This document shows, in pieces, positions 2,777 to 36,632 of a DNA stretch of 39,819 nucleotides. The notes under the pieces are model-generated. The model did no database searches. It was not told the origin of the DNA and worked only from the letters and a program-made list of their open reading frames with translations. The stretch comes from Patescibacteria group bacterium (lineage in GTDB: Bacteria; Patescibacteriota; Minisyncoccia; Phycocordibacterales; DATDSR01). Each line of letters opens with the position of its first letter. Positions within the stretch are counted from its first letter, which is position 1. Where the stretch lies: the NCBI GenBank assembly GCA_038062165.1, contig JBBTXQ010000027.1, positions 1 through 39,819 of the forward strand. Reading direction: 5' to 3'. The position numbers and the translations under genes are program-made.

Positions 2777-3478
2777 ATGACAGAGGATATTAGTAGAAAG
2801 AATATCGAAAGTTTTTCTTCCACTAATTCTGTGGAAGCCTACTCGAATGATTACTTGCGTGAGAGCGAGCGTTATGTGATAGATACTTATGGCACGAGGG
2901 GCAAGCGGGTGCTTGATCTCGGTTGCGGCACAGGTCGCACAACTTCGTACATATATAAGAATGGTGCAGATGTAGTGGGGATTGATCCGGCCGAAGGCAT
3001 GATTACTCGAGGTCGCGAGTTGCATCCAGAATTGGACTTGCGAGTGGGGGACGCGCGCCATCTCGATTTCCCAGACAATTATTTTGATTTAGTTTTTTTC
3101 TCATTCAATGGTTTGGATAATCTTTACCCAATTTCAGAAAGGCAAAATGCAGTCAGAGAGATTAAGAGAGTTTTGAAAACTGGCGGGATCTTCGCCTATT
3201 CATCCCACAATTCGCTTGCCTTGCCGCGCACCGCAAGAGGCTTAAGGGATTGGTTCCTAAATCTGCCACATTTCCATTTAGGCCCTCATTATAGAATTGA
3301 ACGTCATGATTTCGGCAAACTAATTCAGTACTACAACAACGTCTGGAACGAAGAGCGCTGGATCACATCTGAAGGTTTTAAGCTTGAGAAGCGCATCGGC
3401 GGCCCCTTCAGCGAGCGCTTCCCCATGTATATCTGCCGCAAGCCACAACTTGGAGGCCTTGCCTCTAAGTTGTTATAG
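2777..3478 (+). CDS. Class I SAM-dependent methyltransferase
   Basis: VLDLGCGTG motif I, GDARHLDFPDNYFDLV, RVLKTGG; the last codons run through the hairpin at 3445-3473. Confidence 0.9.
   Translation: MTEDISRKNIESFSSTNSVEAYSNDYLRESERYVIDTYGTRGKRVLDLGCGTGRTTSYIYKNGADVVGIDPAEGMITRGRELHPELDLRVGDARHLDFPDNYFDLVFFSFNGLDNLYPISERQNAVREIKRVLKTGGIFAYSSHNSLALPRTARGLRDWFLNLPHFHLGPHYRIERHDFGKLIQYYNNVWNEERWITSEGFKLEKRIGGPFSERFPMYICRKPQLGGLASKLL
3445..3473. repeat. REP-like hairpin in the methyltransferase 3' end
   Basis: ACAACTTGGAGGC-CTT-GCCTCTAAGTTGT; 13-bp stem with one G-T pair; GGAGG-N5-CCTC core. Confidence 0.75.
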
Positions 3479-3490
3479 GTGCTACACCTG

Positions 3491-3519
3491 TTGACATTCG
3501 TCAAGTTCTCTGATAGCCT
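3491..3519 (+). promoter_or_regulatory. Sigma70 promoter of orphan ORF 3546
   Basis: TTGACA (3491-3496), 17-nt spacer, TG-a-TAGCCT; a TTGAC-N4-GTCAA dyad overlaps the -35. Confidence 0.6.
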
Positions 3520-3545
3520 CCGTTTAGAAAGAGAGGTAAAGGGCC

Positions 3546-3920
3546 ATGGGACTTAACCTATCAATTTATCCACTTGTGGATCCAAGCCGTTTAAGGGGAA
3601 CTGCGAGTTGTCTAGACAGGCTTTCCTTCGATCGGGATTATAGGATCTTTGCTCAATTCTCCGACGCAGAGCTTCGAGCCGGAGATACGCCAGAATATCC
3701 TGTAGGCTCTATCAAGTGCGAGAGGATTCCTTCGGACTGCTGGCTGGACATAAACGGCAAGAGAACGAGAAAAAACGGTGATCAGGTGGTCACCTTCGTC
3801 TATGCCGAAGACGCTCAAAGACTCATGATGCCAGCCGATACGTCACAGAAGAACAAGGCCATCAAAGCCTTCATCGATGCTCTGCCTCCGGATGCTCCAA
3901 TCATCCTTTGGTGGAGCTAA
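3546..3920 (+). CDS. Hypothetical protein (stand-alone orphan cassette)
   Basis: 124-aa ORF with GAGGT Shine-Dalgarno, own promoter and downstream hairpin; no family recognised with confidence. Confidence 0.7.
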   Translation: MGLNLSIYPLVDPSRLRGTASCLDRLSFDRDYRIFAQFSDAELRAGDTPEYPVGSIKCERIPSDCWLDINGKRTRKNGDQVVTFVYAEDAQRLMMPADTSQKNKAIKAFIDALPPDAPIILWWS

Positions 3921-3937
3921 TTTGGAATCTCGCACAC

Positions 3938-3964
3938 GAACCCCGAGGATCATCCTCGGGGTTC
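3938..3964. terminator. Hairpin after ORF 3546, probable terminator
   Basis: GAACCCCGAGGAT-C-ATCCTCGGGGTTC perfect inverted repeat; no strong U-tract. Confidence 0.6.
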
Positions 3965-4002
3965 TCATATTTATACTAGAATTTTTGAATTAGAGAATCC
4001 CC

Positions 4003-4019
4003 CGGAGGGTAACCCTCCG
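4003..4019. repeat. REP palindrome, RAYT1 type
   Basis: CGGAGGGTAACCCTCCG; reverse complement of the copies at 4052 and 4332. Confidence 0.9.
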
Positions 4020-4038
4020 TAGCAAAGCAATGATAACT

Positions 4039-4085
4039 CTAATTTGTCAAACGGAGGGTTACCCTCCGTAGGTTAGCCATTCGAG
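4039..4085 (-). pseudogene. Remnant 3' tail of a second RAYT allele
   Basis: Aligns with 4369-4419 (RAYT1 3' end); the minus strand reads LEWLTYGG* versus LDWLTYEPT... in RAYT1. Confidence 0.65.
4052..4068. repeat. REP palindrome, RAYT1 type
   Basis: CGGAGGGTTACCCTCCG. Confidence 0.9.
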
Positions 4086-4362
4086 TCACAATTCACTTGC
4101 CATCCCACACACATTGCCCGGCCTGAAAGATTTATTTAGAAATATGTTCAAATTGCGAGTAGGCCCTCATTATCGCAATATCAACCAAGGTTTCGGGCCC
4201 CTAGTGCAGTACTATAACAACGTCTGGCAGGAAAAAAAGTTCATAGAAAATTGTGGATTTAGGTTATTAGAACGCCTCGGAGGTTCCGTGAGAGAACGCT
4301 TCCCCCTTTATATTTGCAAAAAATCACAACCCGGAGGGTTACCCTCCGGAACAACACGATAA
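4078..4362 (+). pseudogene. 5'-truncated paralogue (C-terminal part) of the methyltransferase at 2777
   Basis: HSSHNSLAIP...GPHYR...QYYNNVW...ERFPLYICKKSQ aligns without gaps to YSSHNSLALP...GPHYR...QYYNNVW...ERFPMYICRKPQ; SAM-binding region absent. Confidence 0.85.
4331..4349. repeat. REP palindrome, RAYT1 type
   Basis: CCGGAGGGTTACCCTCCGG. Confidence 0.9.
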
Positions 4363-4368
4363 AGAAAG

Positions 4369-5052
4369 CTACTTGTCAAACAAGGGGTTACCCTTCGTAG
4401 GTTCGTAGGTTAGCCAATCAAGCATTTCGGTTTCGTATTCTTCAATATTTGCAAAATATTTTGGAAAGGTATCTAAGTTTAATATCTTAGATTCCGGTCT
4501 CCATAGGTCCAGATGATCGGAGTAACTTGAGAATTTGTAATCTCGCAAATTTTGTAATACCTTTCTCGCCGCATGCTTATTCAGTTTGCCGGGTTTAATT
4601 CCAAACAATGCTCCAGGATTTAGGTGAATGTATGCGAACAAATATTTTAGGTGTTCGTTATTTTTTATATGTACGGCCTTGAATGTTCCCTCAAACAGTC
4701 TGCCAGTTCTATTATTACAGAGATTGAAGTACATAGAGTGAGACGTACCTAATTTCATCATAAATTTACTTATACCTCCTTCCTGTCTCTCCTTGGCAAG
4801 TACATGGTGATGGTTGTCCATCATTGCGTAGGAACCAATGTCGATTAATCTCTTCCCAACATCAACATCGTAGGCAGAATCAATAGTTGGAATTTCCCGA
4901 AAGTTTAATTCTTTGTTTCCGTTGCACAAGTAGAGTAATTTTTGAAATCTGATTTTGTCATTCTCGTTAGTGAAAATATTTCTCTTCTCAATGCCTCGGT
5001 TAAAGCAGTGATAGTACTCATTTAGAGAAAATTTAAAGTTTCTAGTTGCCAT
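4369..5052 (-). mobile_element. REP-associated tyrosine transposase (RAYT, HUH/Y1 superfamily), RAYT1
   Basis: YYHCFNRG, MDNHHH (HUH position), GRLFEG.F, YIHLNP (catalytic Tyr) and YKFSSY motifs; flanked by palindromes. Confidence 0.9.
4381..4397. repeat. Degenerate RAYT1-type REP inside the last codons of RAYT1
   Basis: CAAGGGGTTACCCTTCG; 4 mismatches to the consensus. Confidence 0.7.
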
Positions 5053-5082
5053 GTAGTAATTTTATACTAATCCACTCTTCTA

Positions 5083-5099
5083 CAAAGGGTAACCCTCCG
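5083..5099. repeat. Degenerate RAYT1-type REP upstream of RAYT1
   Basis: CAAAGGGTAACCCTCCG; 2 mismatches to the 4003 copy. Confidence 0.8.
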
Positions 5100-5162
5100 G
5101 AATTATGACATATTGATAATAATCAGTAAACATGATAGGGTGTGCAGAGGGAGGACAAAGCA

Positions 5163-5465
5163 ATGTACAACGTTGCATTTGTGTACACGAGAGAAACTGG
5201 TGGCTTCGAAGGAGTTGTGACATGGTGCACTTTCAAATCCAAAGAGGATTTCGACAAATTTTACACAGATGAGATCCGAAAAAGAGAACGAGTGGTGGAA
5301 GAAGGGATCTCGCAAGAACGTTGTATCGAACTTGTTAAGTTGACCCCTCATGCTTGTAGAGTAGCCGCTGCCATTCAAAAGGCAACGGGGCCGGATGGAG
5401 AAATTGATGTGGAATCGCTAAAAATGGAACTCCACATGGCACTAATGGCAAGCAGTCTGGAGTAG
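5163..5465 (+). CDS. Hypothetical protein (stand-alone orphan cassette)
   Basis: Start moved to the ATG at 5163 behind GGAGG (5150-5154); promoter TTGATA-17-TAGGGT at 5113-5141. Confidence 0.7.
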   Translation: MYNVAFVYTRETGGFEGVVTWCTFKSKEDFDKFYTDEIRKRERVVEEGISQERCIELVKLTPHACRVAAAIQKATGPDGEIDVESLKMELHMALMASSLE

Positions 5466-5484
5466 CATCGACTGCTCGAGTAAC

Positions 5485-5518
5485 AAGGGGCCACGTTCTG
5501 ACGAGAACGTGGCCCCTT
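5485..5518. terminator. Hairpin after ORF 5163, probable terminator
   Basis: AAGGGGCCACGTTCT-GACG-AGAACGTGGCCCCTT perfect 15-bp stem. Confidence 0.7.
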
Positions 5519-5561
5519 ACAATTTTTCGGGCGAATTTTATGCTAGACTTTTTAATACTTT

Positions 5562-6278
5562 ATGATTTTGATTCACAGAAAGTTCGGTTTGTTTAAGTCA
5601 GTTAGGATTTTACTCCAAAGGGAGACTTTGGAGCAGATTCTAAAATTCAGCAAATGGGATTACGTGACTGTTGTTTCTTATAATCCTTTACCAGAATTGG
5701 AGAAAGCGGGATTTGTTTTGACTACGAAAAATATCGCTAATATTTACTTAGGCGAGAGAAAAAGTGATGAGGAAATTCTGGCAAGTTTCTCTCGCAACAC
5801 ACGCAATGAGATACACAGAACTGAAACGATTCAGGAATTACGATTCATGATTCATGAAGGGTATAAAAAAGAAGAATACGAGTTGTATGAAAGTTTTGAG
5901 AAGAGCCAAGATAGGAAACCTTGGAGAGAGGAGACGCTAAAAGAGGGAATTGTGCACTTCAATGCTTATTATAAGGGTGAGTTAGTCTCAAGTCTGCCTT
6001 GTTATGATCTATTTCCAGCACTTCAGGTGCGGGCCATGTTTTCTAAGCGTTTAAGTACACACGATCATGAATTTAACAAGATAATTAGCAACGCGAACAG
6101 AAGGTTGGTTTACGAAACTTGCAAATGGGCGCTTAATAAAGGGTATAAATTTGTTGGTTTGGGTGCTGTTACTACCAGTACAGAACAAAAGGCGAATGTG
6201 GCCCAGTTTAAGATGTTCTTTGATCCTAAAGTAGAGACAGAATACACCTATACACGTAGGCCTTGGTTTATGTTATGA
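5562..6278 (+). CDS. GNAT/FemAB-like acyltransferase-fold protein
   Basis: EEILASFSRNTRNEI and ANRRLVYE..KWA..KGYKFVGLG...QFKMFF resemble FemAB/Acetyltransf_6 signatures. Confidence 0.6.
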   Translation: MILIHRKFGLFKSVRILLQRETLEQILKFSKWDYVTVVSYNPLPELEKAGFVLTTKNIANIYLGERKSDEEILASFSRNTRNEIHRTETIQELRFMIHEGYKKEEYELYESFEKSQDRKPWREETLKEGIVHFNAYYKGELVSSLPCYDLFPALQVRAMFSKRLSTHDHEFNKIISNANRRLVYETCKWALNKGYKFVGLGAVTTSTEQKANVAQFKMFFDPKVETEYTYTRRPWFML

Positions 6279-6285
6279 TTGCCAC

Positions 6286-8505
6286 ATGCCCGTGAATACG
6301 ACTGACAAGGTTCTCAAAGGTTTGCTGTATCTGTCTCTATTTGCCGCGCTTTTCCTCCCTCTGTTCGTAGCTAATGGTATGTTTTTCCCTTTCATCGTCG
6401 GCAAGAATTTTGCTTTTCGCATAATTGTTGAGATCGCTCTTGCTATTTGGCTTATCTTATTATCACGCAAGGCCATCACCGGTCCCAAATCGTCATGGAT
6501 CGTCACGACAGTTGCGATTTTCGCTTGTGTTTTAATATTAGCCGCGATTTTTAGCGTTAATCCATACCGAAGTTTCTGGTCTAACTATGAACGCATGGAT
6601 GGTCTCATCAATCTACTTCATGTTTTCGGCTATTTCTTTTTGATGGCTTCAGTTTTCAATACCCAGAAATTGTGGAATTGGTACTTACACACATCGCTTG
6701 CCTCGGCCACCATCACTTCCCTTATCGGCTTGGCCCAACTTACGGGGCTGAAAGCTATCAGCCAGAGTAGTACGCGAGTAGATACCACTTTCGGCAATGC
6801 CACTTACTTGGCTGTGTACATGTTCTTTCACATTTTCATCGCCCTGTACTTTTTCATCAAGAATCGCGATTTAAACAAATGGCATAGAATAGGTTACGGC
6901 GCGCTTGTCTTACTTTATGGCTTGATTCTCTATCACACAGCCACAAGAGGCGCAATTTTGGGATTAATTGGCGGTCTCATTTTCGCTCTCATTCTCTCGT
7001 TTTTCACAACAGAGGGGAGGATGCGCAAATTAATCGCCGCTCCACTTGTACTCATTGTTCTCTTTGCTGGGGGATTTTATCTTGCTCGTGATACTAAATT
7101 TGTCCAAGGGAGTCCTGTGTTAAGCCGATTTTCCAATATGTCACTTAAAGATTCCACCACGCGCACGCGCTTCATTGTTTGGAGCATGGCTCTCAAGGGT
7201 GTAGCCGAGAGGCCAATTTTAGGCTGGGGTCAAGAGAATTTCAACATAGTTTTCAATAAGCATTATGACGCGCGTCTGCATAGTCAAGAGACTTGGTTCG
7301 ACAGAGCTCATAATGTATTCCTAGATTGGCTTGTGGCGGCCGGTATCTTGGGCCTTGCAGCGTATCTTTCTATCTTTGTAGCTTTATTTTGGATTATATG
7401 GAAAAACACGAGTTCTACTGTTTCTCGTTTAGAGCGTAATTTATTGGCGGGATTATTTGCTGGTTATTTATTCCAGAATATTTTCGTTTTCGATAACATT
7501 ACGAGCTATATAATGTTTTTCAGCCTACTTGCTTACATTCACTTTATTTCTGATAGGGAAGTCTCGTTTAATCTTGTGCAGAGAGTGCGAAGTTTATTTG
7601 CGCGTTTGGGAGCATTTATGTCTGGCGCGTATAGAACAATCGTTTATGCTCTCGTGCCCGTACTTGCAATTTTCGTTATTTACTTCGTTAATGTTAAGCC
7701 CATCAAAGCAAACGGTCTTATCCTTACTAATATGTATCCGAGAGTGATATCAGAAGAGCGCCTCACTAGCATAAGCAAGCTTTTCGATATGGGCACTTTC
7801 GGCAATATGGAAGCGCGCGAACAGTTGCTATTCTTATTGATAGAGGTGTCTGGTCAACAAAATGTAGATCAGAATCTCATGATGAAATATCTCGAGCTTG
7901 CCTATCAGCAAATGAGCAAACAACTTGAAAGCACAGGAAATGACGCTAGGCATCAACTTTTCATGGGATCATTCTTGCAGACATTTGGGAAGGCTGATGA
8001 CGCATTAGTTAACTACAAAAATGCGCAAGTCCTCTCACCCAAGAAGCAGATTATTCTTAATTCACTTTCTAGGGTTTATCTTGAGAAGGGGGATTATGCC
8101 GAAGCTATGCGCTTATCAAAAGAGGCTTACGAATCCGATCAATCATATAGTCGAGGAGCTATCGAGTATGCTATAACACTTATCTATGCAGGAGAAAATG
8201 AAGCTGCCGAAGCCCTTTTCAAAAAGCGTTTTGGCACAGAACTTGTGGCAGATCCTCGGGTCATTCAGGCGTATGTCCATCTTGGTAGGTACGACAAAAT
8301 AATCGCAATTTGGAAAGAGCAGATTGCTGATAATCCCACTAATCCTCAAGCGTACTTATCGCTTGCCGCAACCTATTATGCGGATCATCAAGACACTAAA
8401 GCTATCCAGACACTTAGACAGATGATAGAAGTTGATCCCAACACAAAAGCTCAAGCCGAAGAATATATAAAGCAAATTGAGTCAGGAACTCTTCCCCGAA
8501 ATTAG
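6286..8505 (+). CDS. O-antigen ligase/Wzy_C-family membrane protein with C-terminal TPR repeats
   Basis: About 12 hydrophobic segments; TFGNATYLA, TATRGA, RPILGWGQENF and FDRAHN motifs; TPR-like tail. Confidence 0.88.
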   Translation: MPVNTTDKVLKGLLYLSLFAALFLPLFVANGMFFPFIVGKNFAFRIIVEIALAIWLILLSRKAITGPKSSWIVTTVAIFACVLILAAIFSVNPYRSFWSNYERMDGLINLLHVFGYFFLMASVFNTQKLWNWYLHTSLASATITSLIGLAQLTGLKAISQSSTRVDTTFGNATYLAVYMFFHIFIALYFFIKNRDLNKWHRIGYGALVLLYGLILYHTATRGAILGLIGGLIFALILSFFTTEGRMRKLIAAPLVLIVLFAGGFYLARDTKFVQGSPVLSRFSNMSLKDSTTRTRFIVWSMALKGVAERPILGWGQENFNIVFNKHYDARLHSQETWFDRAHNVFLDWLVAAGILGLAAYLSIFVALFWIIWKNTSSTVSRLERNLLAGLFAGYLFQNIFVFDNITSYIMFFSLLAYIHFISDREVSFNLVQRVRSLFARLGAFMSGAYRTIVYALVPVLAIFVIYFVNVKPIKANGLILTNMYPRVISEERLTSISKLFDMGTFGNMEAREQLLFLLIEVSGQQNVDQNLMMKYLELAYQQMSKQLESTGNDARHQLFMGSFLQTFGKADDALVNYKNAQVLSPKKQIILNSLSRVYLEKGDYAEAMRLSKEAYESDQSYSRGAIEYAITLIYAGENEAAEALFKKRFGTELVADPRVIQAYVHLGRYDKIIAIWKEQIADNPTNPQAYLSLAATYYADHQDTKAIQTLRQMIEVDPNTKAQAEEYIKQIESGTLPRN

Positions 8506-11813: not shown

Positions 11814-11817
11814 CTTT

Positions 11818-14515: not shown

Positions 14516-15544
14516 ATGATTATCAGAGAAAACGTGTTGCTTGCGCCATACACAACATTGCGTATCGGTGGGCCGGCAAGGTATTTCGCAGAGATTGAAA
14601 ACGAGCAGGAGCTTTCCGAAGGCTTAACCTTTGCGAAGGTTAAGCCTTCGGGTTTACCAATTTTCGTGTTAGGTGGTGGGTCAAACATTTTAGTTTCTGA
14701 CAAAGGCTTCGACGGACTAGTGATCAGACCCATGATCATGGGCAGAGAAGTAATATCCCCACCTATACCCTCCCCTTATAATAAGGGGAGGGCTGGGGAG
14801 GAGATAAGAATCAGGGTGGGAGCAGGGGAGGTGCTTGATGATGTGATCGGGTGGACGGTAGAGAACGGTTGGTGGGGTCTCGAAAACTTATCCTTTATCC
14901 CGGGTCTCACGGGCGCGCTGGCTATACAAAATGTAGGCGCTTATGGGACTGAAGCAAGTGAAGTAATCGAGAGCGTGGAAGTGTTTGACAGGGCGAATAA
15001 TGATTTAAGAATTATGAGTAATGAAGAGTGCGGGTTTGAATATAGAAGGAGTCGTTTTAATACTACTGATAAAAATAAATTCATAATATTGCGTGTGCTT
15101 CTTAAGCTTAAAAAAAATGGCAGGTCTAATCTATCATACGAAGATGTCAAAAGTTATTTTGGGAATCGCCTGCCTGCCGGCAAGACAGGGATTCCCAAGT
15201 TGATTGAACTACGTAATGCAATAATTGAAATTAGAAAAAATAAGGGCCAGGATCCAAATGAGATCTGGAGCGCAGGATCGTTCTTTAAGAACTTCGTTGT
15301 ATGTGACAACGAAGGAGTTGAGTACAAAATTTCGGCCGCCGAGATCCTCGATAAGAGATTGGGTCTTAAGGGCTTGCAAGTAGGCGGGGCTAAACTTAGT
15401 GAGAAGCAGGTGATAAATATGGTGAACACGGGCAACGCCACAGCTCGTGATTGCATAGAACTGTTTGAAAGAGTGCGGGCCATAGTTCTGGATAAAACAG
15501 GGTTGAAGCTAGTGAACGAGCCAGAGTTTGTGGGCTTTGAATAG
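14516..15544 (+). CDS. murB: UDP-N-acetylmuramate dehydrogenase
   Basis: TTLRIGGPA, LGGGSNIL, GLENLSFIPG..G, QNVGAYG, FEYRRSRF, SAGSFFKN and L.NEP. Confidence 0.96.
   Translation: MIIRENVLLAPYTTLRIGGPARYFAEIENEQELSEGLTFAKVKPSGLPIFVLGGGSNILVSDKGFDGLVIRPMIMGREVISPPIPSPYNKGRAGEEIRIRVGAGEVLDDVIGWTVENGWWGLENLSFIPGLTGALAIQNVGAYGTEASEVIESVEVFDRANNDLRIMSNEECGFEYRRSRFNTTDKNKFIILRVLLKLKKNGRSNLSYEDVKSYFGNRLPAGKTGIPKLIELRNAIIEIRKNKGQDPNEIWSAGSFFKNFVVCDNEGVEYKISAAEILDKRLGLKGLQVGGAKLSEKQVINMVNTGNATARDCIELFERVRAIVLDKTGLKLVNEPEFVGFE
14616..14651. repeat. In-frame REP doublet (REPIN-like) in murB
   Basis: CCGAAGGCTTAACCTT-TGCG-AAGGTTAAGCCTTCGG perfect 16-bp stem made of two inverted GAAGG-N5-CCTT units. Confidence 0.85.
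14756..14799. repeat. In-frame palindrome in murB
   Basis: CCCTCCCCTTAT-A-ATAAGGGGAGGG (14768-14792) with outer TCCCCA/TGGGGA; encodes SPPIPSPYNKGRAGE. Confidence 0.85.
15159..15198. repeat. In-frame palindrome in murB
   Basis: TTGGGAATC-G-CCTGCCTGCCGGCAAGACAGG-GATTCCCAA; encodes GNRLPAGKTGIP. Confidence 0.85.
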
Positions 15545-24734: not shown

Positions 24735-25388
24735 ATGAACAAAAAATTATTATTCGTGGGAGTTTTGTTGTCTGCCATCGTAACAGGAACAGCTTTTGCT
24801 AATCCACCAATTATCACAGTAGACGAAATTCCGGACATGGAGTTCGCCACTTTCCCTCAAGCCTACACTGTGACCGGCTTCGTCACGCACGATAGCGCCA
24901 CTGGTCCTGGCACCAAGAATGTTTGTCGTCTCACCTTTTTTGAAGTGATCGTGGGTAATGGTACTGCTACTACTACACTACTTAGTCTCACGGGGACGAC
25001 TACTATCTCAACTTATTTCGGATGGCTACCTGATTGCTTCGAGACAGATACTTGGAGCGCCGATTGGTCTATTCTCGCCCCAGGTATTTACACGGTAGTG
25101 GTCACGGCCAAGCATATGGGCGCGAGTGATACTGACGATGAAGTAACATTAATCACTGAGACCCCAGTTGTGATCGCACTATGTCCAGCCGCGCCATCTT
25201 ACGCCGCCCACTACTTGCAAGAATTAGGGGTGAAATCCGGTAGCAAACTCTACAAGAATGTAGTCTCTCTAGTGGCTAAGCACATGGGGCCTACCACAGA
25301 CTTCGACGGCATAGCGGCTTGCGATGAGATCCCCTACGAGGTTGCAGTTCGCGCTTTCGTGGATGCCAATAGGACAATCGCCAAGTAA
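24735..25388 (+). CDS. Secreted hypothetical protein
   Basis: Signal peptide ending in AFA; Thr-rich, beta-rich body with four Cys. Confidence 0.7.
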   Translation: MNKKLLFVGVLLSAIVTGTAFANPPIITVDEIPDMEFATFPQAYTVTGFVTHDSATGPGTKNVCRLTFFEVIVGNGTATTTLLSLTGTTTISTYFGWLPDCFETDTWSADWSILAPGIYTVVVTAKHMGASDTDDEVTLITETPVVIALCPAAPSYAAHYLQELGVKSGSKLYKNVVSLVAKHMGPTTDFDGIAACDEIPYEVAVRAFVDANRTIAK

Positions 25389-25402: not shown

Positions 25403-25429
25403 GTTGCAGGAGGTTTAGCCTCCTGCAAC
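25403..25429. repeat. REP palindrome, RAYT2 type (dispersed copy)
   Basis: GTTGCAGGAGG-TTTAG-CCTCCTGCAAC; 19-bp core identical to 35911-35929. Confidence 0.9.
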
Positions 25430-25503
25430 CTCCCTGTTTAGTCAGGTGATTGTGAACAAAGTGTGCTAGAGTGGGGTTGAAAATTAACAATAACACTTAA
25501 TAT

Positions 25504-25893
25504 ATGGCTCGCTTTGACAGAGGTGGATTCAAGGGAGGGGGTGATCGCAGACCCAAGCAATTATTCGACGCGACTTGCGCCAATTGTGGCAAGGCAACTC
25601 AAGTGCCATTTCGTCCCACGGGTGATCGGCCGGTGTATTGTCGCGAGTGTTTCGCCCAAATGGGCGGGGGAGAAGAGCGCGGGCGAGAGGCAGGAGCACG
25701 CGGTTTCAAGCCCACACAGTCTAGTCCAATTACTAATTCTCCCGATCACAGCGCACTCAAGCGCGAGTTGCAAGAGGTGAATGCCAAACTCGAACGACTC
25801 ATCACGGCCGTGCAATCACTTGCCCAAGTCACTACCTCTGCCGAACCAATTAAGTCTCTCAAGAAGCCAGTTAAAAAAGTATCAAAGAAATAA
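25504..25893 (+). CDS. CxxC-x17-CxxC domain protein
   Basis: ATCANCGKATQVPFRPTGDRPVYCRECF. Confidence 0.9.
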   Translation: MARFDRGGFKGGGDRRPKQLFDATCANCGKATQVPFRPTGDRPVYCRECFAQMGGGEERGREAGARGFKPTQSSPITNSPDHSALKRELQEVNAKLERLITAVQSLAQVTTSAEPIKSLKKPVKKVSKK

Positions 25894-26208: not shown

Positions 26209-27807
26209 ATGACCCAAGCAGAGGCGCTTAATATTCTCAAGACCGGGGCGAATGTTTTCCTGACGGGCGAACCGGGCTCGGGCAAGACTCACACTGTCAA
26301 TGAGTTCGTTCGGTATCTAAAAAGTCAGGGAGTAGAACCAGCCATCACCGCCTCGACGGGCATTGCCGCTACTCATATTGGCGGCATGACTATACATTCT
26401 TGGGCAGGGATTGGAATAAAGAGATACTTATCGAAGTATGAGCTCGACAAGATTGCTACCAATGAGCGTGTGCACAAGCGTGTATCTCGTGCGCGCGTGC
26501 TCATAATAGATGAGATCTCGATGCTCGGCCCAGACACACTCGATATGATTGACGCTGTCTGCCGCACAGTGAGGCGCTCGCACGAACCCTTCGGCGGGCT
26601 CACGGTATTGCTCGTGGGCGACTTCTTCCAATTACCGCCAGTCGTGAAGCGCGAAGAGTTGAACGAGGATGCAGATCTAGAGGAGTCTCGATTGTTTACG
26701 CAAGAAAGGGCCCGCTTCGCCTATCAATCGAGCGTATGGGCTAGAGCAAACTTGCTCACTTGTTATCTGCACGAACAATATCGCCAAGACGATCAAGTTT
26801 TTTTAAATTTACTAGGCGCAATCAGACGCAACGAGTTTGATTTTGATGGTGAGCATCTCGAGCATGTCGAAAAGCGCAAAGTGTCAAACAGCGAGAATCT
26901 CGAACACATACCACAGCTTTATGCTCACAATATTGATGTTGACAGAGTGAACACAGGCAAGCTCGCCCAGATCAAGAGTGATGAGAGAATGTTTGAAATG
27001 TATGCTGAAGGTCCGGAGCACATGACAGAAGCGCTCGCTCGCGGTTGTTTGTCACCCGAGAAGTTGATTCTCAAAGTGGGTGCGGCTGTGATGTGCACCA
27101 AGAATAATCAGAAAGAGAGATTTGTGAACGGCACTCTTGGTACTGTCAGGGCATTTGATAAGACAAGCGGCTACCCGATAATCAAAACGAGATCAGGCAG
27201 AAATATTTTGATAGAACCCATGGAGTGGACGGTGGAAGAGAACGGCAAAGTCAAAGCCAGAATCAGGCAGGTGCCCTTGCGTCTGTCGTGGGCCATCACT
27301 GTACACAAGAGTCAGGGCATGAGCATGGATGCCGCTCTTATGGACCTATCGAATGTTTTTGAACACGGACAAGGCTATGTGGCACTCTCAAGAGTGCGCA
27401 GGCTCGATGGTTTGCACTTGCTTGGCTGGAACGAGCGCACCTTCCAAGTTCATCCCCATGTTCTCGAGCGCGACGTTGCCTTCCGCGCTAATTCCGAAGA
27501 AACCCAAGCAACCTTCGCTAAACTAGACAGGAGCGAACTTGAGAAAATGCACTCAAACTTTGTTCGAGCCTCCGGTGGTAAGCTGAGCAACTTGGCGGTG
27601 AAACCGCCAAGTGAGAAAAAAAGTTATGATGTGGCGAGTCTGCGCACGAAGTATCCGAAAGCGTATCAAGCCTGGGAAAGCGAAGAAGACGGCAAGCTCA
27701 TCCAAATGCATAACAGTGGCATCAAGATAAGCGAAATAGCCAAAGAACTAGGAAGAAAAACCGGCAGTATTACCTCGCGCCTGCGCAAGCACGGCTTAAT
27801 GAAATGA
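26209..27807 (+). CDS. Pif1-family SF1B DNA helicase with C-terminal HTH-like domain
   Basis: GEPGSGKT, TASTGIAA, IIDEISM, GDFFQLPPV, WAITVHKSQG and GQGYVALSR; tail AYQAW..EED...IAKELGRKTGSI.SRL. Confidence 0.93.
   Translation: MTQAEALNILKTGANVFLTGEPGSGKTHTVNEFVRYLKSQGVEPAITASTGIAATHIGGMTIHSWAGIGIKRYLSKYELDKIATNERVHKRVSRARVLIIDEISMLGPDTLDMIDAVCRTVRRSHEPFGGLTVLLVGDFFQLPPVVKREELNEDADLEESRLFTQERARFAYQSSVWARANLLTCYLHEQYRQDDQVFLNLLGAIRRNEFDFDGEHLEHVEKRKVSNSENLEHIPQLYAHNIDVDRVNTGKLAQIKSDERMFEMYAEGPEHMTEALARGCLSPEKLILKVGAAVMCTKNNQKERFVNGTLGTVRAFDKTSGYPIIKTRSGRNILIEPMEWTVEENGKVKARIRQVPLRLSWAITVHKSQGMSMDAALMDLSNVFEHGQGYVALSRVRRLDGLHLLGWNERTFQVHPHVLERDVAFRANSEETQATFAKLDRSELEKMHSNFVRASGGKLSNLAVKPPSEKKSYDVASLRTKYPKAYQAWESEEDGKLIQMHNSGIKISEIAKELGRKTGSITSRLRKHGLMK
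27590..27612. repeat. In-frame REP-like hairpin in the Pif1 linker
   Basis: ACTTGGCGGT-GAA-ACCGCCAAGT perfect 10-bp stem, within NLAVKPPS. Confidence 0.8.
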
Positions 27808-31085: not shown

Positions 31086-31114
31086 CAAACTCAAGCATCT
31101 GTTATAATTAACGT

Positions 31115-31483: not shown

Positions 31484-31496
31484 GTGAGACTTAAAT

Positions 31497-32168: not shown

Positions 32169-32554
32169 AAAAATTACATCTTGAATTTATTGGCACTCTC
32201 ATCTTTGTTCTCGGAGGAACTTATGTTGCTTACAAGTTGATTGGTGGTGTGGGCGAATTCTGGAGCGCACAGAAGTTCTGGAATGTCGCGCTCATTATCT
32301 GTTGGCTCTTTGTCTCGGCCGGCTATTATCATCAAGGCTGGAAGGTGCATAAACGGCGTGATTCAAGTGAGGTCTCGCTTCTTCTGCCCGTAACAGTCTT
32401 TATCGTGCAGTGTATCCTCTTTGTGAAGGGGATCTATTATCATGACTGGTCGCTTATAGCGGGAGCTATGATGGTCAATTCCGGTGTGGTATTCAGTATT
32501 TACCAAATAGTCAAGAATAAACCAGTAGTGTATAATAAGAGTACTATTAATTAA
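32162..32554 (+). CDS. Small membrane protein, PQ-loop/SemiSWEET-like
   Basis: Four TM segments; HQGWKVHKRRDSSEVSL resembles the PQ-loop pattern but lacks the Pro. Confidence 0.5.
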   Translation: MVKKLHLEFIGTLIFVLGGTYVAYKLIGGVGEFWSAQKFWNVALIICWLFVSAGYYHQGWKVHKRRDSSEVSLLLPVTVFIVQCILFVKGIYYHDWSLIAGAMMVNSGVVFSIYQIVKNKPVVYNKSTIN

Positions 32555-32568
32555 GTAACAATAAGTAT

Positions 32569-32823
32569 ATGGCAAAAGAGAATTCGGCTTTCATGAAGCC
32601 CTTGAAAGTGAGTGACGATTTGGCGGCAGTGGTCGGTCCTGGCCCCTTACCTCGTTCAGAAGTGGTTAAGAAGCTCTGGGTCTACATCAAGGGTCACAAT
32701 CTTCAGAATCCTAAGAAAAGACGCAATATCATCGCCGATGATAAGCTCAAAGCAGTTTTCGGTGGTAAAGGTGAGGTTGATATGTTCGAGATGCAAAAAT
32801 TAGTTTCGGCCCACCTCTCATAA
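32569..32823 (+). CDS. Stand-alone SWIB/MDM2 domain protein
   Basis: LAAVVG..PLPRSEVVKKLWVYIK.HNLQ and DMFEM.KLVS.HL. Confidence 0.93.
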   Translation: MAKENSAFMKPLKVSDDLAAVVGPGPLPRSEVVKKLWVYIKGHNLQNPKKRRNIIADDKLKAVFGGKGEVDMFEMQKLVSAHLS

Positions 32824-32866
32824 CCTCTCAAATTAACAAAAATAAAGTAAATCACAATAAAATAAT

Positions 32867-33073
32867 ATGACAGGAACAATCAAAACACTTCTTACTGAAA
32901 AGAAGTTCGGCTTCATCACAGTAGAAGGACGCGAGAAGGATCTCTTCTTCCACAAAGACAAAGTAGCCGCTGGCACCAACTTCGACGATCTTAAAGAGGG
33001 TGACACAGTCTCCTTTGACATCAACGAGACTGGTCCTAAGGGCCCAGCCGCAGAGAACGTCGCCCGCGCGTAA
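32867..33073 (+). CDS. Cold-shock domain protein
   Basis: KFGFI (RNP1), DLFFH (RNP2) and GPKGPAAENV. Confidence 0.95.
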   Translation: MTGTIKTLLTEKKFGFITVEGREKDLFFHKDKVAAGTNFDDLKEGDTVSFDINETGPKGPAAENVARA

Positions 33074-33082
33074 GCAAATCGC

Positions 33083-33940
33083 ATGAGGTCGTATCGGGAG
33101 ATCTTGGCCCTGGCTAAGTCTGGCAATTACGCGATTGGCCACTTCAATTTTGCCAATTTCGAGATGCTCTGGGGTGTGGTGAACGCGGCTAAGAAATTGC
33201 AAGTGCCTGCTTTGTTAGGCTTGGCTGAAGGCGAACGCGATTGGGTGGGGATAAAACAAGCAGTTGCTTTGGTTAAAAGCTTGCGTGAAGAAGGGTTAGA
33301 AGTATATCTGAATGCCGATCACACTTATTCGCTTGAAAGAGTTAAAGAGGCAATTGATGCAGGTTTCGATTCTGTTATATTTGACGGGGCAAAATTAGGC
33401 ATAGAAGAGAATATTAAGATCACAAAGGAGTGCGTTGACTATGCCAGGGCCGTATCATCTTCTTCGGGTCGAGATGTGATTATAGAGGGCGAACTTGGTT
33501 ATATCGGCGAGGGATCGACTGTGCGTGACGCACTTCCTGACGGTGTGCAAATGACTAGTGTGGGTGATGCACAAAGATTTGTAGAAGAGACGGGTGTTGA
33601 TTTGTTCGCGCCTGCTGTGGGCAATGTGCACGGCATGTTGCGCGGCTCTTATGATCCACCCCTAGATTTATCTAGGATAGAAGAAATTGTAGGCGCAGTA
33701 AATGTGCCACTTGTCTTGCACGGTGGTTCGGGTACGCCCAATTTGAGTGAGGGTATCGCGGCGGGCATTAGTGTGGTGCATATTTCTACTGAATTGCGCA
33801 AAGCCTGGCACGACGCAATGCTAGTGCACTTAGAAGAATTTCCAGACGAAATTGCGCCGTATAAAGTGGGCAAAGGCGCCCTGGAGGCAATCCAAAAAGT
33901 AGTCGAATCTCGCTTGGAATTATTTTCAAGCCCTAATTAA
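33083..33940 (+). CDS. fba: Class II fructose-bisphosphate aldolase
   Basis: NADH, FDSVIFDG, EGELGYIG, AVGNVHG and PLVLHGGSG. Confidence 0.93.
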   Translation: MRSYREILALAKSGNYAIGHFNFANFEMLWGVVNAAKKLQVPALLGLAEGERDWVGIKQAVALVKSLREEGLEVYLNADHTYSLERVKEAIDAGFDSVIFDGAKLGIEENIKITKECVDYARAVSSSSGRDVIIEGELGYIGEGSTVRDALPDGVQMTSVGDAQRFVEETGVDLFAPAVGNVHGMLRGSYDPPLDLSRIEEIVGAVNVPLVLHGGSGTPNLSEGIAAGISVVHISTELRKAWHDAMLVHLEEFPDEIAPYKVGKGALEAIQKVVESRLELFSSPN

Positions 33941-33958
33941 TTTTCTAAATTTTAGTCC

Positions 33959-35605
33959 GTGACACTTAAAGAGCAATTACAGCACATAATCAAGGGCGAC
34001 GTTTCTGATGCAATTGAGATTCTCAATAAGAATTCTACCGACGCTTCCATATTTCAGATACAGCCGGAACTTGTTGTGTCACCGCATTCAAGCGAGGATA
34101 TCAAGAATCTAGTCAGTTTTGTTAATTTGCACAAGAGCGAATTCCCACATCTCTCGCTTACTGCCCGGGCGGCCGGTACAGACATGAGTGGTGGCCCGCT
34201 TACAGAATCGGTCGTGCTGGATTTTCTGAAATATTTCCAAGGAGTTAAGAATATAGATATTGATAAGCAAGAGGCAACTGTCTTGCCCGGCACGTATTAT
34301 CGCGATTTCGAGAAAGCCACATTAGGCAAGGGCTTACTCTTACCCAGCTATACTGCGAGTAAGGAGTTGTGCACCGTGGGTGGTATGGTGGCCAATAATT
34401 CTGGCGGCGAGAAAACTCTTACCTATGGCAAAACGATCGATTATGTGCGTGAACTTAAAATTGTTCTTTCAGATGGTAATGAGTATGTAACTAGGGCACT
34501 TGACCGTGCGGGTCTGGATGAGAAGATCGCCCAGAATAATTTCGAAGGGAAAATTTATTCTGAAATAAAAAAGTTAGTGGAAGTTAATAGAAACTTGTTG
34601 CGCGAGGCTAAGCCCAAAGTGCACAAGAATTCGGCCGGTTATTACTTATGGGATGTGTGGGATGGTGAGACATTTGATCTGAACAAATTGATCGTTGGCT
34701 CGCAGGGCACACTGGGTATAATCACTGAAATCAAATTAGGCTTAATCAAGCCCAAAGAGCACTCAAGTCTACTTGTGATCATGCTCGACGAGTTCGCCAT
34801 GCTTTCAGAGGTGGTAGGAACGATCCTTGCGCATAAACCAGAAAGTTTTGAGGCATATGATGATCACTCTATGAAGCTCGCCGTGCGCTTCATGCCGGAC
34901 ATGATGAAGCAATTGGGGGCAAAGAACTTAATCGCGTTGGGTTGGCAATTCTTGCCAGAAATTAGATTGATCTTGCTGGGCGGTGTGCCTAAATTAATCC
35001 TAGTTGCAGAATTTACAGGCGATTCTGAAGACGAGATATATGCAAAAGCGCGTGCCGCAGAAAAAGACTTAAAAAAGTTCGATATCAGGACGCATATTGC
35101 CAAAAATGACAAAGAAGAGAATAAATATTGGACAATGCGTCGCGAGAGCTTCAATCTCCTGCGCAAGCATGTTCACGGCAAGCACACGGCACCCTTCATA
35201 GACGACATTGTTGTCTTGCCAGAGCACTTGCCTAAGTTCTTGCCAGAATTAAATGCCTTGATGAAAGATTATAAACTTGAGTACACAATCGCAGGCCATA
35301 TCGGCGATGGGAATTTCCATATTATTCCCTTGATGGACTTTGAGAGACCGGATTTCAAACAGATTATAAGTGAACTCTCGAAAAAAGTTTATGATCTAGT
35401 AGGGAAGTATGGCGGTTCGATCACAGGCGAACACAATGACGGTCTAATCAGGACGCCCTTTCTAAACAGGATGTATAAACCAGAAATTCTGGAACTTTTC
35501 AATCAAACCAAGCAAATTTTTGACCCCCTGAACATTTTTAACCCTGGCAAGAAGACGGGAGCTGACCTAGGCTATACCCTTTCCCACATCAGACATTGGC
35601 AATAA
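33959..35605 (+). CDS. FAD-linked oxidoreductase (GlcD/D-lactate dehydrogenase family)
   Basis: RAAGTDMSG, GGMVANNSGG, GSQGTLGII, GHIGDGNFH, TGEHNDG and FDPLNIFNPGK. Confidence 0.93.
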   Translation: MTLKEQLQHIIKGDVSDAIEILNKNSTDASIFQIQPELVVSPHSSEDIKNLVSFVNLHKSEFPHLSLTARAAGTDMSGGPLTESVVLDFLKYFQGVKNIDIDKQEATVLPGTYYRDFEKATLGKGLLLPSYTASKELCTVGGMVANNSGGEKTLTYGKTIDYVRELKIVLSDGNEYVTRALDRAGLDEKIAQNNFEGKIYSEIKKLVEVNRNLLREAKPKVHKNSAGYYLWDVWDGETFDLNKLIVGSQGTLGIITEIKLGLIKPKEHSSLLVIMLDEFAMLSEVVGTILAHKPESFEAYDDHSMKLAVRFMPDMMKQLGAKNLIALGWQFLPEIRLILLGGVPKLILVAEFTGDSEDEIYAKARAAEKDLKKFDIRTHIAKNDKEENKYWTMRRESFNLLRKHVHGKHTAPFIDDIVVLPEHLPKFLPELNALMKDYKLEYTIAGHIGDGNFHIIPLMDFERPDFKQIISELSKKVYDLVGKYGGSITGEHNDGLIRTPFLNRMYKPEILELFNQTKQIFDPLNIFNPGKKTGADLGYTLSHIRHWQ

Positions 35606-35610
35606 CAGTA

Positions 35611-35641
35611 ACTTGACATCTGGTCAAGTATATGATATGCT
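35611..35641 (+). promoter_or_regulatory. Sigma70 promoter with a dyad over the -35
   Basis: TTGACA (35613), 17-nt spacer, TG-a-TATGCT; ACTTGAC-N5-GTCAAGT. Confidence 0.65.
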
Positions 35642-35662
35642 TCAGTTTGGAGGGTCAAAATC

Positions 35663-35842
35663 ATGATCACGCAGCGAGGCTACAGGGCTCTGGAGAGCCG
35701 CGCGATCGAATCGCGCGAAATCGAGCTTCTCGAGCGAGAGCTCGACTCGATCTTCGGCATTCCGGAGATGATGCGCTCCGGCGAGCCCCAGCAGTTTCGG
35801 GCTCGGCGGGATCTCCATCCGGAGATCCCGAAGAAGCCGTAG
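35663..35842 (+). CDS. 59-aa GC-rich orphan protein
   Basis: Not in the track; MITQRGYRALESRAIESREIELLERELDSIFGIPEMM...; GGAGG at 35649; preferred over the overlapping track ORFs. Confidence 0.6.
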   Translation: MITQRGYRALESRAIESREIELLERELDSIFGIPEMMRSGEPQQFRARRDLHPEIPKKP

Positions 35843-35910
35843 TCGCGAATCTCCCAGCGCGGCCAGTGCCCAGACCGTCCCGACGCAAATCGAGACGGTC
35901 TTTGCTTTTT

Positions 35911-35929
35911 CAGGAGGTTTAGCCTCCTG
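35911..35929. repeat. REP palindrome, RAYT2 type (3' flank)
   Basis: CAGGAGGTTTAGCCTCCTG, 2 nt from the RAYT2 stop. Confidence 0.92.
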
Positions 35930-35931
35930 TA

Positions 35932-36600
35932 TTACTTGGTTAGAGCATTGAGCTCTGGCGCTATCTCCATCCAATCGTGTATGTTATCAAGAAGTTCAGT
36001 GGCGGAATCATAAATATCTAGTAGTGAATTTTGTGATAATATCCTATTTTCAATTCTTTCGTCTCCGAGATAATCGTAAAGACTTGAGTACTTATAATTA
36101 ATTAGAAATCTTTTTGCCGCTTCCTTGTCTTTTACGCCATTAATTTTCCAGTTTGGCTCAAAAATGTCTAGGTGGTTTAAATGTATGTATGTAGGAATGT
36201 GTTTAAAATAGTTGTCGGTATTCATGTGTTTCGCCCTATAAGTACCTTGGAACAAACTTCCGGACCTTTCATTCATTGCATTAAAATACATTGTGTAGGC
36301 AGTTAATAATTTTTGCATAAATTTCGATATGCCGCCCTCACGTATTTCTTTTAACAATAAATGAAAGTGGTTAGTAAGTAGAGAGTATGCACACACATCA
36401 ACAAGCTGTTCACCGCGATTCCACTCATAGACATCCTCAATTTTTTCAGCATTTATGTCGAAAGAATTAGTTCCGTTTGATATAAATAGCAATTTCATAA
36501 AGCGATCATGATCGTGTTCGTTACTAAAAATAATGCGCCTGTCTACGCCCCGATTGTAAACGTGGTAGTACTCTCCAGTTGAAAATTTGAATTTCCTCAC
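35932..36600 (-). mobile_element. REP-associated tyrosine transposase (RAYT, HUH/Y1 superfamily), RAYT2
   Basis: YYHVYNRG, TNHFHLL (HUH), GSLFQG.Y, YIHLN and YKYSSL; GTG start; collinear with RAYT1. Confidence 0.92.
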
Positions 36601-36613
36601 CCAGTCATTTTAT

Positions 36614-36632
36614 CAGGAGGCTAAACCTCCTG
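36614..36632. repeat. REP palindrome, RAYT2 type (5' flank, inverted)
   Basis: CAGGAGGCTAAACCTCCTG, exact reverse complement of 35911-35929. Confidence 0.92.

Follow-up and report, generated by a model that had tools for sequence, protein, structure and literature searches.

RAYT-like genes and their private hairpin families in a groundwater Patescibacteria genome

Two RAYT-like genes and their protein family

The stretch of DNA analyzed here (the window) is the whole of contig JBBTXQ010000027.1, 39,819 nucleotides (nt) of assembly GCA_038062165.1, a 663-kb, 53-contig metagenome-assembled genome (MAG; 0.66 Mb, 89.7% complete) of a groundwater Patescibacteria bacterium. It carries two genes resembling repetitive extragenic palindrome (REP)-associated tyrosine transposases (RAYTs), together with short hairpins that bracket both genes and recur elsewhere in the genome. 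A sequence-only reading of the window had proposed that each gene is paired with its own five-nt core inside a shared GGAGG-N5-CCTCC hairpin, that the loop sets the specificity of the pair, and that hairpins with other cores point to further or lost RAYTs. We compared the window with the rest of its own genome (G000), with three congeners (G001, G002, and G003), and with wider sets of relatives; contigs are labeled C1, C11, C19, C25, C32, C35, and C41.

RAYT1 occupies positions 4369–5052 on the minus strand and encodes a 227-amino-acid (aa) HUH/Y1 protein with NHHH at residues 80–83 and a tyrosine, Y141, in the motif YIHLNP. RAYT2, at 35932–36600 on the same strand, starts with GTG and encodes a 222-aa HUH/Y1 protein with the motifs NHFH and YIHLNH. 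The two proteins are 40% identical, and both score above the cut-off of 23 bits for the Pfam domain Y1_Tnp (PF01797), RAYT1 with 26.2 and RAYT2 with 27.4 bits. They are members of a larger set: tblastn recovers eight RAYT-like paralogs in the genome, two in the window and one each on C35, C41, C1, C19, C32, and C11. All eight open reading frames (ORFs) are uninterrupted, that on C11 being truncated by the contig end. The other seven are 31–62% identical to RAYT1, with no near-identical copies among them, and in the C41, C1, C19, and C32 paralogs the tyrosine motif takes the form Y[IV]NLN[ND]. A genome-wide Pfam search adds just two classical IS200-type ORFs; these stand in tandem at 482–1392 of the 1.5-kb contig C25, match Y1_Tnp with 137.7 and 93 bits, and differ in class from the RAYT-like eight.

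An alignment of 59 sequences shows N80, H81, and H83 of the HUH motif and the tyrosine Y141 to be invariant; N145 is nearly so, and the proline that follows it is not. The consensus of aligned relatives reads NHFH...LFQG...YIHLNP...SS. An AlphaFold2 (AF2) model (mean pLDDT 93.7) places Y141 within a helix spanning residues 132–150, and its top Foldseek match in the PDB is 4er8_A, the E. coli TnpA-REP with a bound REP hairpin (E 3.2e-7, target TM score 0.67). The IS608 and ISDra2 transposases follow, and 4er8, 2a6m, 2xo6, and 2vjv all reach a probability of 1.00. A phmmer search of the PDB with the single RAYT1 sequence returned no match, and a profile search returned weak ones alone (ISDra2, E 0.027; 4er8, E 0.85); the evidence for the fold is therefore the AF2 model with Foldseek.

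Hairpins beside the two genes

All of the hairpins to which the sequence-only reading had pointed are present, six of them as exact instances of GGAGG-N5-CCTCC: three with the core GTAAC/GTTAC, at 4004, 4053, and 4333 (the R1 family), and three with TTTAG/CTAAA, at 25409, 35913, and 36616 (the R2 family). Only 0.01 such instances are expected in the window, and none of 100 shuffles reaches six. Both stems are longer than first described, the full forms being C-GGAGGG-TTA-CCCTCC-G for R1 and CA-GGAGG-TTTAG-CCTCC-TG for R2. Five copies of the R1 core had been claimed around RAYT1; three are exact, and those at 5083 and 4381 are degenerate. The exact matches bear out the claim that RAYT2 is bracketed by an inverted TTTAG/CTAAA pair with a third copy at 25407. 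The bare pattern with up to two mismatches, in contrast, is not above chance (16 instances vs. 10.4 expected; 8 of 100 shuffles reach 16), and the hairpins at 3452, 14635, and 27594, which had been listed as further cores in the same geometry, are therefore validated by membership of genome-wide families alone.

Upstream of RAYT1 lies the R1-family hairpin 5083–5099, with a degenerate foot (CAAAGGGTAACCCTCCG) and a loop inverted relative to that of the hairpin at 4332–4348. Between it and the gene, on the minus strand, a −10-like hexamer, TAAAAT (5059–5064), ends 6 nt ahead of the ATG, as in a leaderless-type promoter. A second degenerate R1 hairpin, CAAGGGGTTACCCTTCG (4381–4397), lies within the 3′ coding end of RAYT1 and codes for TKGNPL. 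By analogy with the C35 paralog, in which the hairpin loop TAA is itself the stop codon, 4381–4397 was probably the original stop-codon hairpin of RAYT1: an 8-nt tandem duplication (CGTAGGTT twice, plus strand) lengthens the C-terminus, having shifted the frame so that the ORF reads through the presumed old stop-codon hairpin. The hairpin at 4332–4348, 19 nt 3′ of the present stop, forms with 4381–4397 an inverted, REPIN-like doublet with a spacer of about 32 nt. A second R1 doublet at 4003–4068 (hairpins 4003–4019 and 4052–4068) belongs to a 74-nt copy, at 74% identity, of the doublet 4330–4403, and includes the RAYT1 3′-end motif GTAGGTTAGCCA.

At RAYT2, the downstream hairpin CAGGAGGTTTAGCCTCCTG (35911–35929) begins 2 nt past the stop codon, and the upstream hairpin (36614–36632) forms with TAAAAT (36607–36612) a promoter–hairpin unit at 36607–36632 on the minus strand. 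The 3′-terminal TG of the hairpin, an A, and TAAAAT make up an extended −10 element that ends 6 nt ahead of the GTG start. The flanking pairs of R1 and R2 in the window are both inverted. An extra half-site (GCAGGAGG / CCTCCTGC-like) accompanies three of four hairpins of the R2 family at a distance of 3–6 nt, at 36633–36650 and 25426–25434 of the window and at 3849–3860 of C19; it may be part of the recognized element or the remnant of a doublet.

Each RAYT has its own hairpin family

The eight paralogs have eight distinct close-flanking palindromes: CCGGAGGG-TTA-CCCTCCGG at RAYT1, CAGGAGG-TTTAG-CCTCCTG at RAYT2, CGAAGGT-TTA-ACCTTCG at the C35 gene, CCGGTTAC-CCG-GTAACCGG at C41, CAGCGGT-CGG-ACCGCTG at C1, ACTTGGCGGT-TTC-ACCGCCAAGT at C19, ACTTGGGATCC-G-GGATCCTAAGT at C32, and AATGTTCGAG-GCCGGGG-CTCGAACATT at C11, where the downstream flank alone is available because the upstream one is lost at the contig end. 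We scored how well the same palindrome brackets a gene, with a threshold of at least 12, in an order-level set of 67 RAYT loci from the own genome and 26 of 40 same-order relatives, the other 14 having yielded no RAYT (its protein alignment omits two sequences shorter than 190 aa). The threshold is reached at 52 of these 67 loci, compared with 6 of 455 other long ORFs of the own genome. A phylum-wide sample, the best 80 of 498 confirmed relatives, gives a similar picture: three lack a flank, and 59 of the remaining 77 loci score at least 12. By their record titles, about three quarters of this sample are Patescibacteria or Candidate Phyla Radiation (CPR) lineages, with eight Gammaproteobacteria and one Bathyarchaeia. 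The loci below the threshold (15 order-level, 18 phylum-level) are excluded from the hairpin statistics that follow.

The pairing extends beyond the flanks. The hairpin core recurs elsewhere in the genome for all seven scorable resident RAYTs (mean 4.0 copies), whereas the same is true of only 3 of 99 cores from foreign RAYTs (mean 0.06), the main exception being the family of a G002 RAYT at locus L039. The proposal that each RAYT has a private hairpin family holds for the eight paralogs and for most loci of the order-level and phylum-wide sets, and the cores without an evident partner proved informative as predicted. The hairpin at 27594 belongs to the family of the C19 RAYT, that at 14635 is a variant of the C35 RAYT hairpin, and the family of 3452 flanks L039 in G002. 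As a separate observation, C19 carries, downstream of recA, an R2-family hairpin at 3864 and an R1-family hairpin at 4732, separated by 870 nt in which only short ORFs occur; a lost unit may have left this pair behind.

A hairpin at both ends of a gene with a Y1_Tnp domain is also what an ordinary IS200/IS605-type insertion sequence (IS) would present, the hairpins being its left and right ends and gene and ends transposing together, and the two ORFs on C25 show that classical IS200-type genes do exist in this genome. We nevertheless consider this reading quite improbable for RAYT1 and RAYT2. The paralogs are divergent rather than near-identical, the palindrome is the same at both ends where an IS would have different left and right ones, hairpins spread without their gene, and no TnpB-sized ORF stands beside either gene in the ORF list of the window. 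RAYT2 is moreover syntenic with a 63%-identical ortholog in G003 (locus L023, in opposite orientation there); for RAYT1, nothing beyond the gene itself matched at its closest G003 and G001 relatives. The Y---N(P) motif, with the P in RAYT1 but not in RAYT2, resembles that of class 2 rather than the Y---Q of IS200, following the motif definitions given for these classes in Quentin 2018 (PMC6006769).

Promoter, stop codon, and internal copies

Across the order-level loci, the hairpins keep a fixed position relative to the gene. The median distances are −24.5 nt between the end of the upstream hairpin and the start codon and +0.5 nt between the stop codon and the beginning of the downstream hairpin. 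A −10-like hexamer ends 4–10 nt, mostly 6 nt, before the start at 40 of 52 loci, compared with 70 of 209 control genes; a hexamer this close to the start codon suggests that RAYT mRNAs are leaderless. At many loci of a second clade (clade 2; the C41, C1, C19, and C32 paralogs and their relatives), as at RAYT2, the last TG of the hairpin is the TG of an extended −10 element. The promoter hairpin may regulate expression of its RAYT.

Many relatives carry their own hairpin inside the RAYT reading frame as well: 19 of 52 loci do so, compared with 8 of 2652 non-cognate hairpin/ORF pairs (at most one mismatch over the central 15 nt). These internal copies cluster at aa 51–67, before the HuH motif, and at aa 146–165, after the tyrosine helix, which are the two lower-confidence loops of the AF2 model. 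Clade 2 has at the second site a segment of constant length, HQLG...KLV, coded by the palindrome CACCAACTTGG...CCAAGTTGGTG just past the catalytic tyrosine helix; many members keep this palindrome perfect, and in others, C41 and C32 among them, it has decayed. Neither RAYT1 nor RAYT2 has a strictly internal copy.

Two further features of these units and of the genome's promoters were noted. The C19 REPtron has a small basic ORF with a CxxCKPHK-like motif between the RAYT stop (~12708) and the downstream hairpin (~12845). A 21-mer, AAGTAACTTCTAACGGGATGA, occurs in nine G000 copies at up to two mismatches (e.g., C2:8592, C18:9824, C18:11604, and C35:1860), most of which end about 4 nt into a downstream ORF, consistent with the terminal ATG as start; the 21-mer could be a leader or promoter box that these ORFs share.

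Variation among the hairpins

The shared GGAGG scaffold of the sequence-only reading does not survive this comparison. What is common is at most AGG-N5-CCT, a pattern that 61 of 111 flanking hairpins share and in which 35 five-nt cores occur; AGG frames the five-nt center 68 times, every other triplet at most 10 times. The second clade keeps another foot, ACTTRG...CYAAGT, with a variable inner stem, and the stems of other families are unrelated to AGG-N5-CCT. The outer stem, or foot, differs among families as much as the core does, and closely related RAYTs show compensatory stem changes (R1 CGGAGGGTTACCCTCCG vs. C35 CGAAGGTTTAACCTTCG; R1 vs. L002 CCGAAGGGTAACCCTTCGG). The idea that the loop sets specificity within a constant frame therefore holds in part: the N5 geometry accommodates many cores, but foot and inner stem vary too, and the comparisons do not single out the loop as sole determinant.

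Covariation of hairpin and protein across relatives, proposed as a check of the pairing, is clear among close kin and faint overall. Among pairs at a protein distance below 0.3, the hairpin distance averages 0.18, compared with about 0.55 for distant pairs; the Mantel correlation over all pairs is r = 0.153 (3 of 2000 permutations reach it), a value that is indicative only because kin are not independent. Strong covariation was accordingly rejected; hairpins saturate quickly.

The observation that these hairpins lack the GTAG tag at the 5′ foot is supported at the order level, where GT[AG]G occurs within 6 nt of the hairpin at 5 of 52 loci (about 7.5 by chance), and GTAG was rejected as a conserved tag. 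In the window, however, GTAG does adjoin three R1 copies on their 3′ side (4019–4023, 4068–4072, and 4397–4401), where it reads as part of the duplicated 3′ coding end of RAYT1 (...L-T-Y...) and not as a conserved tag. A consistently inverted flanking pair was likewise rejected: the inverted orientation fits better at 20 loci and the direct one at 27, with 5 tied.

Dispersed copies in the window and the genome

Within the window, the 3452 hairpin is the center of a 13-bp stem, ACAACTTGGAGGC-CTT-GCCTCTAAGTTGT (3445–3473, family "orphan A"), in frame at the 3′ end of an S-adenosylmethionine (SAM)-dependent methyltransferase gene (2777–3478). An ORF on the plus strand at 4114–4362 is a C-terminal fragment of a paralog of this methyltransferase (...ERFPLYICKK...) and ends in an R1 hairpin at the equivalent position; the corresponding repeat (D3, 3405–3465 vs. 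4286–4346, 70%) shows two paralogs with different hairpin families at one spot. A decayed second RAYT in 4069–4331 was considered and rejected, since tblastn found none and the ORF there is the methyltransferase fragment. The hairpin at 14635 makes up, with a second one, a 34-nt inverted doublet of the C35-family variant (CGAAGGCTTAACCTTTG and CGAAGGTTAAGCCTTCG; 14617–14650), in frame in murB and coding for EGLTFAKVKPS. The C19-family hairpin AACTTGGCGG-TGAAA-CCGCCAAGT (27589–27612, 24 nt) is in frame in a PIF1-like helicase gene (26209–27807) and codes for NLAVKPPS. A solo R2-family hairpin, again CAGGAGGTTTAGCCTCCTG, is intergenic at 25407–25425, between ORFs 24735–25388 and 25504–25893.

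Genome-wide, we count 37 dispersed copies in nine families, based on our own greedy ORF set, by which about 91% of the genome is coding. Inside ORFs lie 24 copies, all but one of them in ORFs of at least 273 aa; four are at C-terminal ends, one is at a doubtful N-terminus, and eight are intergenic. Pfam searches of 11 host genes identify MurB, the PIF1-like helicase, and the SAM methyltransferase in the window, and ComEC, XseA, a Mur ligase, CysRS, a class-I W/Y tRNA synthetase, LepA, MnmA, and a glycosyltransferase outside it.

These locations bear on whether the hairpins act as signals in RNA or in transcription (terminators or mRNA stabilizers) that are repeated by chance, with only a secondary link to RAYTs. 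Such roles are among those proposed for REPs where Di Nocera 2013 (PMC3733652) turns to their function, and two copies were flagged as terminator-like (4350–4330 on the minus strand and 35911–35929 on the plus strand). But 24 of the 37 copies lie inside ORFs whose frames stay open, most copies lack a T-run, and a search of the whole window returned no Rfam family. The family-specific link to RAYT paralogs would also go unexplained, and we hold this reading to be very improbable.

Two side observations concern the surroundings of RAYT2. Taken from its TTG start, a ribosomal protein L25/Ctc ORF listed at 36587–37375 overlaps the promoter hairpin of RAYT2. Its match to Pfam does not start until aa 42, and the ATG at 36692, with TATACT 6 nt upstream in a leaderless-type arrangement, is the likelier start. 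On the other side, between the gene at 33959–35605 and the R2 hairpin, a GC-rich stretch (35640–35910) holds a small GGAGG-led ORF (35663–35842, 59 aa) and a terminator-like hairpin with a T-run (~35873–35910); this stretch is absent at the syntenic locus L023 of G003.

Turnover between congeners

Nine intragenic sites were compared with the three congeners, and at every one the hairpin is either not always present or not always of the same family. At the 3′ end of the methyltransferase gene, the hairpin is a clean 30-nt in-frame insertion that is absent from G002. Hairpins at aa 73 of comEC and in cysS are absent from the congeners, with length differences of 3–9 aa and 3–5 aa, respectively, and that at the C-terminus of comEC is polymorphic. 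The murB doublet is absent from congeners whose proteins are just 2 aa shorter. The Mur ligase has a perfect hairpin (SGYRVTGS) where G002 has a shorter stem and G001 and G003 none, and at aa 177 of xseA a C35-family hairpin faces a TTAAG variant in G002 and none in G001 and G003; length is unchanged in both cases. The PIF1-like helicase has the C19-family hairpin in the own genome, the same loop with a compensatory foot (TT>CC / AA>GG) in G002, a decayed form in G003, and GGAGG-CCCGA-CCTCC in G001. Finally, at aa 60 of xseA, the own genome carries the hairpin of its own C32 RAYT and G003 that of its own RAYT L029, with a decayed palindrome in G002 and none in G001.

Different families at orthologous sites suggest in-place replacement. 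It is possible, though we hold it as a tentative reading, that hairpins are rewritten where they stand: copies at fixed codons, in essential genes and at the two sites within the RAYT gene, would be overwritten to match the current hairpin of the resident RAYT, in a conversion-like exchange of cassettes on single-stranded DNA (ssDNA). Pointing in this direction are the xseA codons with the own-RAYT or G003-RAYT hairpin, the helicase with three hairpins and one decayed form among four congeners, the methyltransferase paralogs with their differing families, and the perfect hairpins in conserved motifs without change in length. If this is so, short segments of housekeeping proteins would co-evolve with endonuclease specificity, and the enzyme itself would carry a translated copy of its own target (HQLG...KLV).

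Copies without length change in conserved motifs are also what correction of quasi-palindromes would give, and the spread of the hairpins by an agent other than a Y1 enzyme (another nuclease, replication slippage, or template-switch correction), with RAYT genes as favored landing sites, gains further from the family that lacks a RAYT here and from the G002 RAYT that lacks dispersed copies. We judge this unlikely overall, though it may apply to the copies without length change, given the contrast between resident and foreign cores (7/7 vs. 3/99), the fixed placement relative to promoter and stop at 52 of 67 and 59 of 77 loci, the near-restriction of internal copies to cognate hairpins (19/52 vs. 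8/2652), and a nearest solved structure that shows a RAYT in complex with its REP hairpin.

The enzymes could instead be fully domesticated host factors, for which the hairpins are functional binding sites in the processing of ssDNA at replication forks or in gene regulation. Vertical inheritance with synteny, hairpins embedded in promoters, and ORFs that are intact at nearly all loci (an internal stop appears in two matches of the relatives table) are in keeping with this, and class 2 proteins are discussed in such terms where Quentin 2018 (PMC6006769) considers domestication. Hairpin presence that varies among congeners at nine of nine sites argues against site-specific host functions, and we give full domestication very little credence, noting that it overlaps with our preferred explanation rather than excluding it.

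Discussion

We consider both ORFs to be REPtron-like units—an HUH/Y1 gene with its cognate hairpin—and one part of a set of eight private pairs that maintain dispersed copies, with a probability of roughly three in four. The comparisons themselves establish the protein family and fold, the pairing of each gene with its hairpin, the specificity of the families for their genome, the in-frame sites within genes, and the gain, loss, or replacement of hairpins among congeners. Each RAYT is, in this view, a vertically inherited, single-copy HUH/Y1 ssDNA endonuclease or transposase, by its motifs closest to TnpA-Y1 subclass 2.1, with one hairpin in or beside a leaderless promoter, another at or across the stop codon, and in many relatives further in-frame copies at two loops of the ORF. 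Each enzyme would recognize its own hairpin on ssDNA, cut beside it, and rejoin the ends, and this cutting and rejoining would seed and maintain a private family of 2–7 dispersed copies. The enzymes would thereby move or rewrite hairpins, and the pairs would probably be orthogonal. Because about 91% of the genome is coding, surviving copies mostly fall within genes and keep the frame, where they code for parts of loops, linkers, and termini in housekeeping proteins.

Several points weigh against this explanation. Activity is deduced from sequence comparison, in a genome that is a 53-contig MAG. Both proteins fall far short of the cut-off for the NCBIfam model NF047646 (REP_Tyr_transpos; 25.8 and 25.6 bits, cut-off 80), and are a distant branch outside the proteobacterial RayT equivalog. 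The Mantel correlation is weak and its kin are not independent, GT[AG]G is at chance level beside the hairpins, and the orientation of flanking copies is inconsistent. The families are tiny, with 2–7 dispersed copies in the seven resident-RAYT families, unlike classical REPs; the 3445–3473 family has five dispersed copies and no RAYT in the own assembly, yet G002, which holds the L039 RAYT, has just its three local copies. The murB, Mur ligase, and xseA aa 177 copies came with little or no change in length in conserved motifs, so that simple cut-and-paste insertion does not explain them. The stretch 3300–5300 or part of it occurs in 8 public runs of two studies, available as contigs only, of which 4 contain at least half of its words; the contigs of 4 of the runs, whose cover is fragmentary, show no variant, indel, or joint there. 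Two short public contigs match 3439–3474 alone with different flanks and are other copies of that hairpin family. The public contigs are evidence neither for nor against mobility.

The closest known systems are the REPtrons of E. coli (YafM, PDB 4er8), Pseudomonas, and Stenotrophomonas, in which RAYT/TnpA-REP genes are flanked by cognate REPs; they were reportedly described in Nunvar 2010, Bertels & Rainey 2011, and Ton-Hoang 2012. As in those systems, a single-copy HUH/Y1 gene is bracketed here by a short, genome-dispersed palindrome, a genome holds several divergent paralogs, each with its own family, and the best structural match is 4er8_A. Unlike in REPtrons, there is no 5′ GT[AG]G tag, families comprise 2–7 dispersed copies where REPs run to hundreds, most copies lie within genes and keep the frame, and the host phylum is Patescibacteria. 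Palindromes within genes are also said to be known from Rickettsia, the Rickettsia palindromic elements of Ogata 2000. Like these and intragenic REPs, the palindromes described here are tolerated in frame in housekeeping genes, often of replication and repair, going by the examples of such insertions in Di Nocera 2013 (PMC3733652); they differ in being single hairpins of 17–30 nt, each tied to a resident Y1 paralog, and in that the intragenic copies are the majority.

Individual elements of this picture have precedents. The pages of Quentin 2018 (PMC6006769) on tnpA-REP genes state that each has its own REP family and that several pairs per genome are possible, and REPs within genes in frame and within tnpA-REP itself have likewise been described (Quentin 2018, PMC6006769; Di Nocera 2013, PMC3733652). 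The numbers are different: 8–12 paralogs per genome of 0.66–0.7 Mb here, compared with the means of 1.5–1.9 that Table 1 of Quentin 2018 (PMC6006769) gives for most class 2 subclasses. By motifs alone, the proteins resemble subclass 2.1, which corresponds to Bertels group 1 and the "TIRYT" of Di Nocera 2013 (PMC3733652): matched by eye to Table 1 of Quentin 2018 (PMC6006769), they share NH[YF]H, FQ in place of WE/WQ, Y[IV]HLNP, SS after the tyrosine helix, and a length of about 220–240 aa, close to the 238 aa or so of the subclass. The account of subclass 2.1 in Quentin 2018 (PMC6006769) describes a DnaA_C-like C-terminal helix-turn-helix (HTH) and reports no REP-like sequences from automatic or manual searches. 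In contrast, clear cognate hairpins flank the genes here, and neither ORF has a Pfam match at E ≤0.01 to a C-terminal HTH (Bac_DnaA_C, HTH_23, or HTH_28). Cognate hairpins in peripheral loops of the transposase ORF, with the frame kept, recall subclass 2.4, for which the relevant section of Quentin 2018 (PMC6006769) places in-frame REPs between HuH and Y; the sites here lie instead before HuH (aa 51–67) and past the tyrosine helix (aa 146–165).

Our full-text literature searches turned up no account of a RAYT/REP system from Patescibacteria or the CPR, the sole passing mention being a preprint with a K07491 match in an archaeon. What is new here is the presence of eight pairs in one genome, the comparison of resident with foreign cores, the assignment of orphan hairpins, and the orthologous sites with different families. 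The analysis extends the RAYT/REP system to Patescibacteria in an extreme form, with 8–12 divergent enzyme–hairpin pairs in genomes below 1 Mb, and attaches clear cognate hairpins to a Y1 branch resembling subclass 2.1, in which published searches found no REPs. The 111 natural gene–hairpin pairs (61 with AGG-N5-CCT, 35 cores) offer a panel for studying how HUH/Y1 enzymes read hairpins and for identifying orthogonal HUH tags, with variable positions that include the foot of the stem and not just the core, and the promoter-embedded hairpin with its leaderless start provides a testable model of autoregulation. Because most of these nominally extragenic palindromes are translated, the essential proteins of these bacteria would steadily acquire small insertions and substitutions from a nuclease, be it mobile or domesticated.

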